A stretch of 43,024 nt of DNA from an uncultured Candidatus Epulonipiscium sp. (GTDB lineage Bacteria > Bacillota > Clostridia > Lachnospirales > Cellulosilyticaceae). Where the stretch lies: positions 1 to 43,024 of the forward strand of contig CAZLPH010000002.1 in assembly GCA_964561345.1 (NCBI GenBank), given 5' to 3'. Made by a program: the position numbers and the translations under genes. Of this stretch, positions 686-33,744 are shown piece by piece (position 1 is the stretch's first letter; each line of letters begins with the position of its first letter). The notes under the pieces were generated by a model. That model worked only from the letters and a program-made list of their open reading frames with translations, was not told the DNA's origin and did no database searches.

Positions 686-710
686 GTGCTTTAAACCAGA
701 GTAATTCATA

Positions 711-750
711 AAAAGCTAGGACTAATTTATATTAGTCCTAGCTTTTTTTT
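711..750 (+). terminator. Rho-independent terminator after efp
   Basis: AAAAGCTAGGACTAAT / ATTAGTCCTAGC stem with a 4-nt loop, followed by T8. Confidence 0.8.
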
Positions 751-5380: not shown

Positions 5381-6199
5381 ATGTTTGTATTTAAAAGAAA
5401 TCAAATTATTATAACAGCACTTGTTTTTATGGTATCTATTGCAGCGTATTTGAATTTTACGGACAATAAAAATGCAGTTCAACCAACGTTTGATGATGGG
5501 GGGCAAAAAATAACTGAAACCGCAGCAGGAAGGGAAGGGTTAGATGTAAGCTCTGATGATTTTTTTACAAGTTATGAATTGGCAGATATTGATACACTAG
5601 CGCCGGACTTTGAAGTAGGTATGGAAGATGGATTAACAGCACAAGTTGATTCAGAAAATATAGCAGAAGCGGATACTTTAGAAGAATCTACTGGTGTAAC
5701 ACCTGATAATCATGTGCCTGAGTGGGCCCCGATGTCTTTAAAAGATAAGATGATGGCAGAAAATAAGAAAATTACAGACAAAATCGCAGAAAATATTGGT
5801 GATAATGTTGTTAGTGAAGAAGTGGTTCTTGTCAACAAATCTTATGATGTTAACTATTTCGTAGAGGCAAAAATGGACAGGGAGCAAAAACGCTCCGAGC
5901 AAATTGAAATGTTAGCGGAGTGTATTAGTAGTGACACCTTAGACAAGGATTCAAAATCAGGGGCAGCAACGAATCTTATAACCCTCCAAGAGCGTATTGA
6001 AAAAGAAAGTGCAATTGAGTCACTTCTAAAAGCAAAAGGGTTTAAAGAGGTATTTGTTCGTATTAGTGATGATGATGTGGATGTGGTCATTAATAGGGAA
6101 AAAATTGAAGAAGCTGATATTGCCCAGATTGAAGATATTGTAAGACGAAAAACTGGCTACGCCACAAGTCAGATTAAGATTAGTCCGCTAAAGAGTTAG
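5381..6199 (+). CDS. spoIIIAH: Stage III sporulation protein AH
   Basis: 272 aa with an N-terminal TM segment, a long acidic linker and a C-terminal YscJ/FliF-like region (FVEAKMDREQKRSE...VFVRISDDDVDVVIN). It is the last gene of the operon. Confidence 0.8.
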   Translation: MFVFKRNQIIITALVFMVSIAAYLNFTDNKNAVQPTFDDGGQKITETAAGREGLDVSSDDFFTSYELADIDTLAPDFEVGMEDGLTAQVDSENIAEADTLEESTGVTPDNHVPEWAPMSLKDKMMAENKKITDKIAENIGDNVVSEEVVLVNKSYDVNYFVEAKMDREQKRSEQIEMLAECISSDTLDKDSKSGAATNLITLQERIEKESAIESLLKAKGFKEVFVRISDDDVDVVINREKIEEADIAQIEDIVRRKTGYATSQIKISPLKS

Positions 6200-6204
6200 A
6201 GAGT

Positions 6205-6312
6205 GGGTTAAGACGCGTAGGAGGGGGATATACATAGGTTCAACAAATAACTAACGTTAAACTTGTTGAACTTATGTATATCCCCCACTGTGCGGTCGGC
6301 CACAACTAACCC
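6205..6312 (+). repeat. Extended-hairpin repeat, copy 1 (~108 nt)
   Basis: Basal helix GGGTTA(6205-6210)/TAACCC(6307-6312). A 24-bp upper helix pairs 6223-6246 with 6263-6286 and has one G:T that pairs only in the + sense. The 16-nt loop is ATAACTAACGTTAAAC. It shares the core ..ATAGGTTCAACAA/TTGTTGAAC.. with copies 2 and 3. Confidence 0.85.
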
Positions 6313-6373
6313 CGAAGAATTCCCTATTGCCCACAGCTCCCTTTAAGGTATAATAGAAATAAAGGGGGCACTC

Positions 6374-6964
6374 ATGAAGAAAAAGGTTCTCACAGGCATA
6401 ATCGTTTTGTGCTCTATAGTCTTAGCCACGGTGATCATAATAGAAGGTCTAATCATTATCATAGGCAACAAAACTGAAACGGAACAAGAGGTAGATTATC
6501 TTATTATTTTAGGAGCAGGATTATACTGGGACAAGATTTCTCCCGCTTTGGAAGAAAGACTGAAAGTATCCTTGGAATATTTAGAGGAAAACAAAAAGAT
6601 GAAAGTCATTGTTTCTGGCGGACAAGGTCCCAATGAAAAGTTTTCGGAAGCCTATGCTATGAGTGAATATTTGCTTCAGTGTGGGATTGAAAAAGACAGG
6701 ATCATTTTATAAGATAGATCTAGCAATACCTTCCAAAACTTAAGTTTTAGTCTAGAAAAAATAAAGAAAGTAAACTCTCAGAAGGGTCCGAAGGTTCTGA
6801 TTGCGAGTAATGATTTCCATGTGTTTAGAGCAAAGATAATTGCTAAAAGATTAGGAATGGTAGCTTATGGCTTACCAGCTCAAACCCCGGCTAAAATTAT
6901 TTTCAAATCATATGTTAGGGAATATTTTACGGTGATTAAGTCTTTATTATTTGATCGGTTATAA
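6374..6964 (+). pseudogene. DUF218/YdcF(SanA)-family gene interrupted by an in-frame TAA
   Basis: ORF 6374-6712 carries the N-terminal TM segment plus 'YLIILGAG...VIVSGGQG...SEAYAMSEYL'. The same frame continues after the TAA at 6710-6712 as 'DRSSNTFQNLSFS...LIASNDFHVFRAKIIAKRLG...' down to the TAA at 6962-6964. The stop sits where the family has a conserved Glu (..E..S.NT.EN), so GAA->TAA is a one-base change. Confidence 0.7.
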
Positions 6965-6986
6965 ACACAAATGAGGTGGTGGTGAA

Positions 6987-7103
6987 GTGGATTCGTCAAT
7001 ATGGATAGTGGTTATAATAGTGGTCATAATATCAACGGGGCAATTTGGTGTTAACATAAAAGGGAAAATACATAGATATAAAAGAAAATTGGATGAAAGT
7101 TGA
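6987..7103 (+). CDS. Hypothetical 38-aa membrane peptide (GTG start)
   Basis: VDSSIWIVVIIVVIISTGQFGVNIKGKIHRYKRKLDES has one hydrophobic helix and a basic tail, and a GAGGTGGTGG SD lies upstream. It is too short for the ORF track and no family was recognised. Confidence 0.25.
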   Translation: MDSSIWIVVIIVVIISTGQFGVNIKGKIHRYKRKLDES

Positions 7104-7170
7104 AACCAGGAATGGTAAGTCAGTAGAACTGATTAATGCGGATTTTGTCCAAAGTATTAAAGTGATTTAG
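7093..7170 (+). CDS. Hypothetical 25-aa ORF overlapping the preceding mini-ORF
   Basis: MKVETRNGKSVELINADFVQSIKVI. It overlaps 6987-7103 by 11 nt in another frame, just after an A-rich run (AAAAGAAAA). The pair may be one frameshifted ~62-aa gene. Confidence 0.2.
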   Translation: MKVETRNGKSVELINADFVQSIKVI

Positions 7171-7174
7171 GTTG

Positions 7175-7276
7175 AGGATGGCAAGGGTACGGGTAATATA
7201 AATAGGGTTCAACAAATAACGAGTGTTAAAATTGTTGAACCCTATTTATATTACCCGCTTTGTGGTAGGCCATCCT
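7175..7276 (+). repeat. Extended-hairpin repeat, copy 2 (~102 nt)
   Basis: Basal helix AGGATGGC(7175-7182)/GCCATCCT(7269-7276). A perfect 25-bp upper helix pairs 7191-7215 with 7232-7256. The 16-nt loop is ATAACGAGTGTTAAAA. Confidence 0.85.
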
Positions 7277-7300
7277 TTGTGGGAGCCCTATTGTTTGTCT

Positions 7301-8011
7301 CTAGCTGTGGTCTGAAAAATCATATTTGTCAGGCTTGGTTATATTGGCTATATTGGTATCCTCTAGGAGGGGAATATTGACGGTGATTTTTTGAATAATA
7401 GCTGTTAAGATAATAACCGTGGCTGGAATTAGGAGCAAGAAGGTGCGGCTTATTATATTATTGTTGTAGGCATCTATTACATTTAGTGAGATGAGGGTTC
7501 CAAGGACAAATCCTACCCATCTTAGGGACCAGAAGATTACACCGTTCCAGTTGCCTTTGGCTAAATTAATCCCGATATCCGTAGAGGCTCCGGTTAAATG
7601 AGTGGTCCGGTCAATGGCTGTTAAACTGGATGCAGCATTTAAACTACCCATAGCCATAGGAATCGTTATAAAAGAAAAATGCATATTTGCAATTAGACTC
7701 GAAAAAATAGTTATAATAAGCATCATGCTTGTAAAAAATAACCCACCAATCAATCCCGTTTTTCGTGTAATCAAGGTGGAAATGCAAGCACCCAGAATAA
7801 ACGATACAATGATCAACAATACGAATCCTACCGCCACACTCTCCCCATTAAAAATCAGCAGACCCAACTTAGCAGCCCTCCCAGTCATAGAAGAAGTCCG
7901 TTTATCCAAAAAAATCAACAAACTAATCGTATCAATCCATCCCGCCATAACCACAAGCACAAACCCAATCACATTAATTGGCGTAAAAACTTTAATACCT
8001 ACCCTATCCAT
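7301..8011 (-). CDS. YoaK/DUF1275-family membrane protein
   Basis: 236 aa, polytopic, with the duplicated family motif 'SSMTGRAAKLG' / 'THLTGASTDIG'. Confidence 0.8.
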   Translation of the reverse strand: MDRVGIKVFTPINVIGFVLVVMAGWIDTISLLIFLDKRTSSMTGRAAKLGLLIFNGESVAVGFVLLIIVSFILGACISTLITRKTGLIGGLFFTSMMLIITIFSSLIANMHFSFITIPMAMGSLNAASSLTAIDRTTHLTGASTDIGINLAKGNWNGVIFWSLRWVGFVLGTLISLNVIDAYNNNIISRTFLLLIPATVIILTAIIQKITVNIPLLEDTNIANITKPDKYDFSDHS

Positions 8012-8058
8012 AACTCTCAGACCCTTTCGATTTTAAGAATATTAAGGGTTAATTATAA

Positions 8059-8167
8059 CATAGTGGCCCATGGCATGGAAGATGAAAAAATAGGGTTCAA
8101 CAAATAACTAGGGCCAAAGTTGTTGAACCCTATTTCATTTCTCGTTGCGAACCCACCCCCACTCATG
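8059..8167 (+). repeat. Extended-hairpin repeat, copy 3 (~109 nt, more degenerate)
   Basis: Core helix AATAGGGTTCAACAA(8089-8103)/TTGTTGAACCCTATT(8120-8134). The 16-nt loop is ATAACTAGGGCCAAAG. A possible basal helix is CATAGTGG(8059-8066)/CCACT-C-ATG(8159-8167). Confidence 0.7.
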
Positions 8168-8173
8168 TTATAA
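8144..8173 (+). promoter_or_regulatory. Putative sigma-A promoter of the asp23-nusB unit
   Basis: TTGCGA(8144-8149)-N18-TATAAT(8168-8173), ~50 nt upstream of the asp23 ATG. The -35 lies inside the 3' arm of repeat copy 3. Confidence 0.4.
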
Positions 8174-8221
8174 TGAGACAATATGTTGAGATGATAAAAG
8201 ATTAATATAGGAGGAATATAG

Positions 8222-8641
8222 ATGGACGATAAAAATGTAATTACAATGGAATCAACTGATGATGTGGGGCAAGTACAAATAGCCGATGATGTTATAGCAA
8301 TCATAGCTGAGATTGCAGCAACAGAAGTTAAGGGTGTGGCAGGAATGGGTGGTACCCTAACAAACGATATTGTGCAATCATTTTCACGTAGGAAAACACC
8401 AAAAGGTGTTCGTGTTGAGCTTAATGGCAGCCAGGTTATGCTTGATATGACACTGATCATTAGCTATGGTGAAAAGATTCCAGAGGTAACCCTAGAGGTT
8501 CAAAAGAAAGTTAAAAATTCAATAGAAATGATGACAGGGTTAGAAACTGTTGCAATCAACATTCATGTGACAGGAATACATTTTGATAAAGTGGTAGATA
8601 ATACTAAAAATAAAAACAAGAAGACTGATTCAGTAAACTAA
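8222..8641 (+). CDS. Asp23/Gls24-family alkaline shock protein
   Basis: 139 aa. 'VQIADDVIAIIAEIAATEVKGVAGM' is the typical Asp23 N-terminus. An AGGAGG SD is present. Confidence 0.9.
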   Translation: MDDKNVITMESTDDVGQVQIADDVIAIIAEIAATEVKGVAGMGGTLTNDIVQSFSRRKTPKGVRVELNGSQVMLDMTLIISYGEKIPEVTLEVQKKVKNSIEMMTGLETVAINIHVTGIHFDKVVDNTKNKNKKTDSVN

Positions 8642-8668
8642 CCCTTAAATTTAAGGGTTAGTTTGTTT
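8639..8668 (+). terminator. Palindromic hairpin / weak terminator after asp23
   Basis: TAACCCTTAAA/TTTAAGGGTTA followed by GTTTGTTT. It may act only as an attenuator, because nusB follows 20 nt later. Confidence 0.45.
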
Positions 8669-33469: not shown

Positions 33470-33479
33470 GTTGGATTCA

Positions 33480-33560
33480 AAAATAAAACACCTGTGGTGT
33501 GTGCAACATAACTTCCTTGCGTCGTTAAAAGTTGCACACACCACAGGTGTTTTATTTTTT
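33480..33560 (+). terminator. Very long terminator hairpin A (after mglC)
   Basis: A perfect 28-bp stem pairs AAAATAAAACACCTGTGGTGTGTGCAAC (33480-33507) with 33531-33558. The 23-nt loop is ATAACTTCCTTGCGTCGTTAAAA, and the stem ends in a T-run. Confidence 0.8.
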
Positions 33561-33665
33561 GGGAATGTAACCTCACTCTTGGTATAAGGGCGAGAGCGAT
33601 ACAGTTTTGGGCTGCGGGGTTGCTCCTGAACTTGTTTTTTGCCCTCCACTAGCAGGGGTTATACC

Positions 33666-33744
33666 GCAAAAAAAGAAAAAGTGGTTGGGGCAACTTTTAA
33701 CGTCGTAAGGAAGTTATGCTGCCCCAACCACTTTTCTTTTTTGC
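33666..33744 (-). terminator. Very long terminator hairpin B (after the P-II gene, minus strand)
   Basis: A ~25-bp stem with two single-nt bulges. Read on the minus strand the loop is ATAACTTCCTTACGACGTTAAAA. The inner GCAGC/GTTGC helix has a G:T that pairs only in the minus sense. It starts 3 nt after the P-II stop. Confidence 0.75.

Follow-up and report, generated by a model that had tools for sequence, protein, structure and literature searches.

A candidate family of intergenic palindromes with a conserved apex in Epulonipiscium-like gut Clostridia

The stretch of DNA analysed here (the window: 43,024 nt, contig CAZLPH010000002.1 of assembly GCA_964561345.1) belongs to an uncultured Candidatus Epulonipiscium sp. 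and carries five long intergenic hairpins, W1 to W5, the first three of which, located between spoIIIAH and asp23, had been the subject of an original prediction made from the letters alone. Beyond the DUF1275 gene the order is asp23, nusB and xseA, and the remaining window is a sporulation and housekeeping core (efp, spoIIIA operon, dxs, recN, spoIVB, spo0A, mgl sugar ATP-binding cassette genes, mraZ, mraW and penicillin-binding protein genes). The closest named homologues of its proteins are from metagenome-assembled genomes (MAGs) labelled Epulopiscium or Candidatus Epulonipiscium sp. (72% and 67% identity for SpoIIIAH, 89% for MglC), Ca. Epulonipiscium fishelsonii proper being farther off (MglC identity 64%). 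The features concerned are the following, A-type designating short-loop and B-type long-loop elements.

5381-6199: spoIIIAH, the gene directly 5' of W1
6205-6312, plus strand: W1, A-type; upper stem 6221-6246 / 6263-6288, 16-nt apex 6247-6262 (A-UAAC-UAAC-GUUA-AAC)
6374-6964: DUF218 gene, carrying an in-frame TAA
6987-7170: small open reading frame (ORF), apparently frameshifted, next to the interrupted DUF218 gene
7175-7276, plus strand: W2, A-type; perfect 26-bp upper stem 7190-7215 / 7232-7257, apex 7216-7231, 3' motif UUGUGGUAGGCC, basal helix AGGATGGC/GCCATCCT
7301-8011, minus strand: DUF1275 gene
8067-8150, plus strand: W3, A-type; perfect 16-bp inner stem 8088-8103 / 8120-8135, bulged outer stem, apex 8104-8119, 5' module CCATGGCATGG, 3' module TTGCGA
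33479-33559, plus strand: W4, B-type; perfect 29-bp stem, 23-nt apex AUAACUUCCUUGCGUCGUUAAAA
33654-33757, minus strand: W5, B-type; 18-bp inner stem 33677-33735 plus an outer stem, minus-strand apex AUAACUUCCUUACGACGUUAAAA
33747-34082, minus strand: P-II gene

The three hairpins of the original prediction, with their common architecture and 16-nt loops, were recovered with a repeat finder, by counting their core and by folding. Inverted-repeat arms are 26 nt long and 100% complementary in W2, and 24 nt long and 96% complementary in W1, with a 16-nt spacer in both. A 48-nt direct-repeat family (D1) joins the three apices, W2 and W3 being 90% identical over this apical module. The core GTTCAACAA-N16-TTGTTGAAC has 3 exact matches in the window, for 0.03 expected, and the loops read ATAACTAACGTTAAAC, ATAACGAGTGTTAAAA and ATAACTAGGGCCAAAG in W1, W2 and W3, respectively. 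The corresponding RNA folds have energies of -56.2, -55.7 and -39.4 kcal/mol (z = -7.6, -9.7 and -4.6); none of the shuffled sequences folded as well, and the reverse strands are about equally stable. The three hairpins are real, well past chance.

W1 starts 6 nt past the spoIIIAH stop codon and combines a lower module (GACGCG...UGCGGUC) with the basal helix GGGTTA/TAACCC. W2 sits between the small ORF (plus strand) and the convergent DUF1275 gene (minus strand). W3 is located in the divergent DUF1275/asp23 spacer, where its TTGCGA doubles as the -35 element of the asp23 promoter (TTGCGA-18-TATAAT, 8145-8174). Basal helices of unrelated sequence had been proposed to pair in all three copies; this holds for W1 and W2 and fails for W3, whose supposed basal arms CATAGTGG / CCACTCATG are one promoter motif, CCACT(C)ATGTTATAAT, present on both strands of the divergent promoter pair. 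Upstream of asp23, ACTCATGGTATAAT is kept in relatives (L108, L109) irrespective of the local hairpin, including relatives without an element there. For these two reasons the basal helix of W3 was not considered as part of the element, and the bounds given above leave it out (8059-8066 / 8159-8167). W3 lies, as had been predicted, in a divergent promoter region; it is upstream of both promoters and probably untranscribed. An inversion of its outer flanks by loop flipping was ruled out, as CCATGGCATGG and the 3' module TTGCG align in the same orientation with the other copies. The reported lack of a proper U-tract was also confirmed at W1, W2 and W3: no U-tract terminator was called and no T-run follows them.

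The two remaining copies in the window are B-type elements. W4 is directly 3' of the mglC permease gene, and its stem is flanked by an A-tract and a T-tract, which gives it the look of a bidirectional terminator. W5 is directly 3' of the convergent P-II gene, with a U-rich run after its inner stem. Between the convergent W4 and W5 (33560-33653), a promoter-like sequence, CTCACTCTTGGTATAAG, resembles the asp23 promoter motif and is followed by a short terminator-like hairpin with a T-run (33615-33638); from these signals, the spacer may encode a tiny transcript of about 50 nt.

Loci of relatives (designated by L and a number) were reached through SpoIIIAH and MglC homologues, and the syntenic loci were then scanned for hairpins, so that the census covers 43 kb of the source genome, in one contig, together with these loci. 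The family is not limited to three members: about 20 copies with two loop types were found, 5 of them in the window and about 15 in six metagenomic or MAG genomes (L106, L107, L108, L111/L121, L112/L122 and L114), several at orthologous sites (W4 corresponds to L121:5657-5714 and W5 to L121:5913-5984). The copies in relatives are listed below, minus-strand copies being marked (-).

A-type (apical tetraloop): L106:885-954; L107:6015-6084; L108:12443-12516; L111:2342-2415; L114:10755-10818
A-type, variants of the L112 genome: L112:2398-2441; L112:7942-7995; L112:8601-8667(-); L122:2010-2087
B-type (10-11-nt apical loop): L108:12698-12771(-); L111:2548-2635(-); L121:5657-5714; L121:5913-5984(-)
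Degenerate candidates: L107:8351-8412; L108:11582-11640

A covariance-model search with filters off found no further copy in the window, this model also scoring generic terminator hairpins (for example window 709-748, at 29 bits). The density is 5 copies per 43 kb in the window and 2-4 per 10-20 kb in the relatives, or about one per 5-9 kb, and all copies are intergenic.

All copies share one apex, read as stem, 1-3 nt, YAAC, N4 or N10-11, GUYR, AAA(N), stem. Arms form a near-perfect inverted repeat of 16-33 bp, and conservation peaks at the apex and falls off outward. One assembly contains three B-type copies whose 22-nt loops are identical although their stems have diverged. An apical mini-helix is partly supported (73% of cells paired), its inner AC/GU pairs being solid and its outer two pairs broken in about half of the copies. 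The A-type lower module GGCGCR...YGCGGU is shared at non-orthologous sites and between genomes, and its 3' internal-loop motif YGCGGU is kept in paralogues and orthologues, which extends to other genomes the partial conservation described on the 3' side of the internal loop. Short direct repeats of lower-module sequence also occur in A-type 5' flanks (GGCGCAAGG twice, 22 nt apart, at L111:2313-2345; GATGGC twice at L108:12425-12445). The B-type loop read on the opposite strand as a Shine-Dalgarno sequence with a mini-ORF start was ruled out, since only 2 nt would separate the two and the predicted peptides (10-19 aa), being encoded by the variable stems, are unrelated to each other. Among known motifs (Chi, Spo0A box, IHF site, K-turn, loop E and RAT antiterminator), none fits all copies.

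The post-spoIIIAH element is present in the window, L106, L107, L111, L114 and, as a variant, L112; across the element-bearing genomes, SpoIIIAH identity to the window protein goes from 91% down to about 70%. This site has thus been occupied since before the divergence of these genomes, with a stem that has been largely rewritten. Related assemblies are GCA_966194095.1, ERZ4258480 and the Logan assemblies of ERR10093481, SRR19631129, ERR13731091 and SRR7716744; GCA_012841565.1 and GCA_012518255.1 are sister genomes without the family. In more distant relatives (L109/110, L116-120, L123-126) the family is absent and other hairpin families occupy the same intergenic slots. One of these has a self-palindromic core (GGGACAGTCCC / GGGACAGTT) in gene-end slots (L109:10854-10910, L109:12647-12698, L109:11860-11880, L116:10761-10827, L116:15184-15221) and is more REP-like, with its own palindrome in each arm.

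Searches in wider collections gave no additional member. Among 185,579 species genomes, the pattern GTTCAACAA-N16-TTGTTGAAC was found at 68 loci, none with the loop or flanks of the family; in JGI metagenomes, TTCAACAAATAAC-N6-16-TTGTTGAA was found at 37 loci, every one of them a match by chance or within coding sequence. In viral contigs the A-type loop gave 15 coding matches without stems and the B-type loop none, and a blastn search of plasmids with W1 returned nothing relevant. Against Rfam 15, the whole window contains only one tRNA at the gathering threshold, and when 6100-8300 was scanned permissively, nothing beyond the noise usual for long hairpins appeared, all of it below threshold (miRNA precursors; SpF43 at 27.5 bits for a threshold of 70). 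Literature searches on Epulopiscium palindromes, repeats, hairpins and intergenic elements turned up no account of such repeats. From these comparisons the family appears to be previously undescribed and confined to a narrow group of Epulonipiscium-like gut Clostridia.

Two unrelated palindromes were met in the course of these searches. An abundant nested palindrome family of Actinophytocola, a high-GC host, happens to contain the core, in the form GCGTGTCCAAC...TGA-GTTCAACAA-ATCG..CGAT-TTGTTGAAC-TCA...GTTGGACACGCGGG; it occurs at at least 13 loci of the Actinophytocola sp. MAG NZ_DASUVO01 (L005, L007, L008, L011, L013, L029, L032, L037, L041, L049, L054-L056) and at L048 and L065 of a second Actinophytocola MAG. 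In Oscillospiraceae (Faecalibacterium and related), the recurrent hairpin AGGCAT-GTTCAACAA-AAGGGGAAGCGGCGAA-TTGTTGAAC-ATGCCT, with conserved flanks (L010, L012, L026, L034, L040, L064, L067), could represent a conserved terminator or some regulatory element.

The position of the copies relative to genes was considered next to the terminators found at the same sites. Fifteen of the 20 copies lie in sense orientation directly past a stop codon, in seven independent slots (spoIIIAH, small ORF, mglC, P-II, efp, DHH and DUF218), and the minus-strand copies W5 and L121b follow minus-strand genes. The divergent DUF1275/asp23 spacer accounts for three copies (W3, L108a, L108c), and two others (L111b, L112c) are antisense to the flanking genes. 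The A- and T-tracts flanking B-type copies are typical of bidirectional terminators, and T-runs also follow some A-type relatives (L112a, L107a, L107b); at the level of sequence, a hairpin with a U-rich tract is present in W4, W5, L121a, L112a and L107b and absent in W1-W3. Orthologous sites may hold a family member in one genome and a plain terminator in another: L108 has a plain hairpin and T-run after spoIIIAH, and the post-DHH slot holds a plain terminator in the window (CCCTAGAAT-CTTAA-ATTCTAGGG-TTTTT) and a 27-bp family-like hairpin in L107. The statement that the elements are not ordinary terminators was consequently too strong, as they occupy terminator slots, W4 and W5 have A- and T-tracts, and plain terminators stand at the same sites elsewhere. 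From their sense position past stop codons and these plain counterparts, the transcribed copies were interpreted as probable gene-end hairpins.

It does not follow that the elements are merely unrelated ordinary terminators, or inverted repeats that look alike by chance. This explanation would account for the slots occupied and for the 29 bits given by the covariance model to a generic hairpin, and is nevertheless highly improbable in view of the shared 48-nt module with its 3 exact core matches, of the apex and lower-module motifs common to non-orthologous sites and different genomes, and of stems (24-33 bp) far longer than those of the ordinary terminators of the window. Compared with intrinsic terminators in general, the likeness lies in the location just past stop codons, often between convergent genes, in the interchange with plain terminators at orthologous sites, and in the B-type hairpins, which contain G+C and are flanked by A- and T-tracts; the differences lie in stems 2-3 times longer, conserved apices of 16-23 nt, A-type copies without U-tracts, and some positions that are not those of terminators.

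The stems were compared using an alignment of 14 copies, in register (A6). All 16 upper-stem pairs have changed on both sides while 93% of cells remain paired, and the covariation score is 0.765, for 0.208 in shuffles (none of 500 reaching 0.765); when the partner was slid by 1-3 columns as a control, pairing was only 30-44%. Compensation affects 22 of 40 pairs when six full-length A-type copies are compared. The full compensation that the original prediction had noticed in the outer stems is thus observed, and it is also found across orthologous copies in other genomes. It had been taken to suggest selection on structure rather than on sequence; as for selection at the RNA level, the comparison argues the other way. 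Among the 334 pairs of the ungapped upper stems, 325 are Watson-Crick (97%), 5 are G·T, 3 are A·C and 1 is of another kind, whereas RNA helices under stepwise compensation usually contain many G·U pairs. The sense-minus-antisense fold energy is centred on zero (10 negative, 9 positive, 1 zero), and the single G:T of W1, which had been put forward as consistent with an RNA-level role, is anecdotal.

W1 is, in addition, a mosaic. The outer stem (TACAT...) is shared with the orthologue L106a; the inner stem (TTCAAC) and the loop centre (CTAACGT) are shared with the paralogues W2 and W3 and with L108a. In L106a, the inner stem is similar to the one in L111a, an orthologue farther removed. The most likely reading of the 6-7 "compensated" differences that separate W1 from L106a in each arm is therefore a single conversion tract extending over inner stem, loop and inner stem. 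Relative to W2 and W3, W1 also has a one-base deletion that is symmetric in both arms. Template switching in replication is documented as a process that can copy one arm onto the other and produce a multi-base compensatory change in one event (PMC8794818). Taken together, strict Watson-Crick pairing, lack of strand asymmetry, mosaic copies and symmetric indels point to the upkeep of complementarity at the DNA level, and the covariation is most readily accounted for by one arm templating the other and by copies converting each other; it is no proof of RNA-level selection.

An element under RNA-level selection would be a structured cis-acting RNA or a small RNA whose long helix shows a conserved apical internal loop or mini-helix (A-YAAC...GUYR-AAA) to an RNA-binding protein or to an RNase such as RNase III, and would in this way govern how stable the upstream mRNA is or how its 3' end forms. 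The 15 sense copies past stop codons, including W5 and L121b behind minus-strand genes, agree with this, as does an apex kept across genomes while the stems change. The AAC-GUU spacing of 4 or 10-11 nt is easier to reconcile with a folded single strand than with a protein site on a duplex, the outer mini-helix pair covaries from U-A to C-G in some genomes, and the A-type lower helix is G·U-rich, the sense strand being more stable by 4-6 kcal/mol in the spoIIIAH orthologues. This explanation was nevertheless considered unlikely, because near-zero wobble in the upper stems is atypical of RNA-selected helices at such divergence, the mini-helix of the apex is broken in about half of the copies, W3, L108a and L108c precede both divergent promoters, L111b and L112c run antisense, the mosaic copies reflect conversion and not pair-by-pair compensation, and no Rfam family matches.

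A different possibility is a single-stranded DNA element folding on the lagging-strand template, either as the target of a Y1/HUH transposase (REPIN/RAYT-like or IS200/IS605-like) or as an sso-like priming signal for RNA polymerase. GC skew is positive across the whole window, so that the plus strand is the leading strand, and the A-rich apex is on the plus strand in 14 of the 20 copies, the 6 others being on the opposite strand. Strict Watson-Crick palindromes suit DNA hairpins. REPINs are, likewise, high-copy and extragenic, with long vertical persistence and frequent compensatory changes, and have invariant ends and a variable spacer (PMC3116915). The present elements resemble REP/BIME and REPIN sequences in being high-copy, extragenic and mostly at gene ends, in their potential to form long hairpins in single-stranded DNA or mRNA, and in their lineage-specific sequence. 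They differ in what is conserved: in REPINs the two inverted ends (REP 16-mers, each containing a short imperfect palindrome) are invariant and the centre is variable, whereas in the present family it is the apex that stays constant and the ends that change, and the arms, which fold no better than shuffles, have no internal palindrome. Moreover, no RAYT is known for the family or was seen in the 43-kb contig and related loci, and the host belongs to Clostridia and not to Proteobacteria.

Regarding the priming signal, the likeness to ssoA consists of an imperfect hairpin, about 110-130 nt long, which ends in a loop of 16-17 nt, and of the CS-6 hexamer of ssoA terminal loops, TAGCGT, in three copies (L106a, L107a, L111a, that is 3 of about 12 A-type loops); TAACGT is found in W1 and L108a, and CS-6 is missing from W2, W3, the L112-type copies and all B-type loops. 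In pE194, used as positive control, the hairpin measures about 130 nt, its 17-nt terminal loop contains TAGCGA, and an exact RSB lies 55 nt upstream of CS-6. The RSB motif (TTATGCCGAGAAAA...) gave 6 matches at up to 3 mismatches in the present case, for 6.4 expected, with none inside A-type elements. The present elements are also chromosomal, multi-copy and in both orientations, with a perfect upper stem where that of ssoA is heavily bulged. Membership of ssoA was ruled out by the missing RSB, most loops also being without CS-6, and by the chromosomal multi-copy setting. For the single-stranded DNA explanation as a whole, the housekeeping setting with no Rep, Y1 or HUH gene found, the lack of target-site duplications, the minority of copies on the other strand and the conservation of the apex instead of the ends all count against it, and it was judged doubtful.

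ERIC/IRU and Correia (CREE/NEMIS) elements are intergenic imperfect palindromes of about 100-150 bp, as are those described here; their transcripts fold into long hairpins and affect mRNA fate. Some of their copies supply promoter hexamers, as W3 does with the -35 element of asp23; in the present family a TTGCGN 3' module stands at -35 distance from a downstream -10 element in two cases (W3/asp23 and L107a/DUF218). There is no sequence relationship with ERIC or Correia elements, and the central part is here only 16-23 nt. Correia elements end in conserved inverted repeats and duplicate a TA target, neither of which is seen in the present family. As to MITE features in general (Correia, RUP), the outer stems differ between copies, and no shared flanking direct repeats or target-site duplications were found, although the latter were looked for. 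The original prediction had recognised no named Rfam, REP or MITE family in the elements, and for Rfam this is upheld. Integron attC sites also keep structure over sequence, are intergenic and have AAC...GTT triplets that pair, but AAC/GTT is here at the apex and not at the base, and no integrase was found in the window. Hairpins bounding inserted genes, as in an integron with cassettes, were ruled out: the order spoIIIAH, DUF218, (small ORF), DUF1275 on the minus strand, asp23, nusB, xseA is kept in L108, L109/L110 and L114, in genomes with and without hairpin elements, so that DUF218 and DUF1275 are syntenic whether or not the hairpins are there. DUF218 and asp23 each have their own promoter.

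Several observations concern neighbouring features. An in-frame TAA at 6710-6712 splits the DUF218 gene into two parts, each matching PF02698 (profile positions 1-62 and 64-132, respectively); in L107, L108, L109, L114 and L116 the gene is intact (194-200 aa). In the window it is either a pseudogene or the result of a sequencing error. At 6987-7170, two overlapping ORFs of 38 and 25 aa jointly resemble the single 61-aa ORF L109:11673-11858, with the shared protein pattern ...GQFGV..KGKI...ENWIELETKNGK..E.INA.FVQSIKV, and look like a frameshifted small gene. Between asp23 and nusB (8632-8667), a hairpin AGTAAACTAACCCTTA-loop-TAAGGGTTAGTTTGTT is kept nearly base for base across relatives (L108:13277-13316, L109:13192-13227, L114:12830-12864); in L112 it is replaced by an antisense family member (L112:8601-8667). 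In L107, synteny is broken past DUF218, where a DHH gene, a PG_binding_1 protein and a large serine recombinase (Resolvase, Recombinase and Zn_ribbon_recom) are found (L107:8430-10316). The long hairpin L107:8351-8412 is at the junction, which may be a prophage or integrative-element border.

Under the favoured explanation, the elements form a multi-copy family of intergenic DNA palindromes restricted to one lineage. They would belong to the general class of REP, ERIC and Correia elements without being related to them, and would be maintained at the DNA level and used as gene-end hairpins; the probability of this explanation is estimated at roughly 0.55. What is unusual within this known kind is the pattern of conservation: the apex does not vary, the stems evolve fast yet stay strictly complementary, and a single apex frame accommodates two classes of loop. 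One arm would template the other by template switching or hairpin repair, which would keep complementarity at the DNA level, and conversion between copies would introduce multi-base "compensated" changes in single events. Transcribed copies would act as gene-end hairpins, B-type copies with U-tracts as intrinsic and often bidirectional terminators, and A-type copies as weak or factor-assisted terminators or as protective hairpins of the 3' end. Copies in untranscribed spacers would be tolerated insertions, and the invariant apex would be the recognition site of a trans-acting factor for spread or function.

Several points weigh against this explanation. No trans factor for the conserved apex was found. 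The 43-kb window contains no transposase, reverse transcriptase, HUH or recombinase gene, and Y1_Tnp and HUH domains are absent from the window and from the called genes of the related loci. As W1-W3 are without U-tracts, efficient intrinsic termination at these copies is only putative, and the copies in divergent spacers or in antisense imply that not every copy can terminate. Among the loci compared, no pair of empty and filled sites was close enough to set insertion boundaries. Finally, the G·U-rich A-type lower helix, with one G·U in 6 of 6 sequences, can form on the plus strand only, which hints at some strand-specific, possibly RNA-level, constraint; its positions are invariant, however, so that this pairing is only putative.

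A more specific and speculative proposal is that the apex docks a dedicated protein which copies or converts the hairpin-top module into gene-end hairpins throughout the genome, as a mobile terminator-top element, or that it belongs to a regulatory system binding terminator loops. This is rather improbable on present evidence; if true, it would account for identical loops on unrelated stems of paralogues and for family members replacing ordinary terminators at orthologous sites.

Strict Watson-Crick symmetry, symmetric indels and mosaic copies thus argue for palindrome maintenance at the DNA level despite covariation. Abundant and fully compensated stem changes are consequently not by themselves evidence of a functional RNA, and covariation-based discovery of non-coding RNAs should reckon with this. 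The uncultured Epulonipiscium-like Clostridia would have a REP-like repeat system in which the conserved part is the apex and not the ends; such apex-centred conservation departs from the logic of REP, REPIN and MITE elements and implies a recognition factor. At about one copy per 5-9 kb, the repeats would affect terminator and operon prediction and would probably fragment short-read assemblies, and they could be used as lineage markers.

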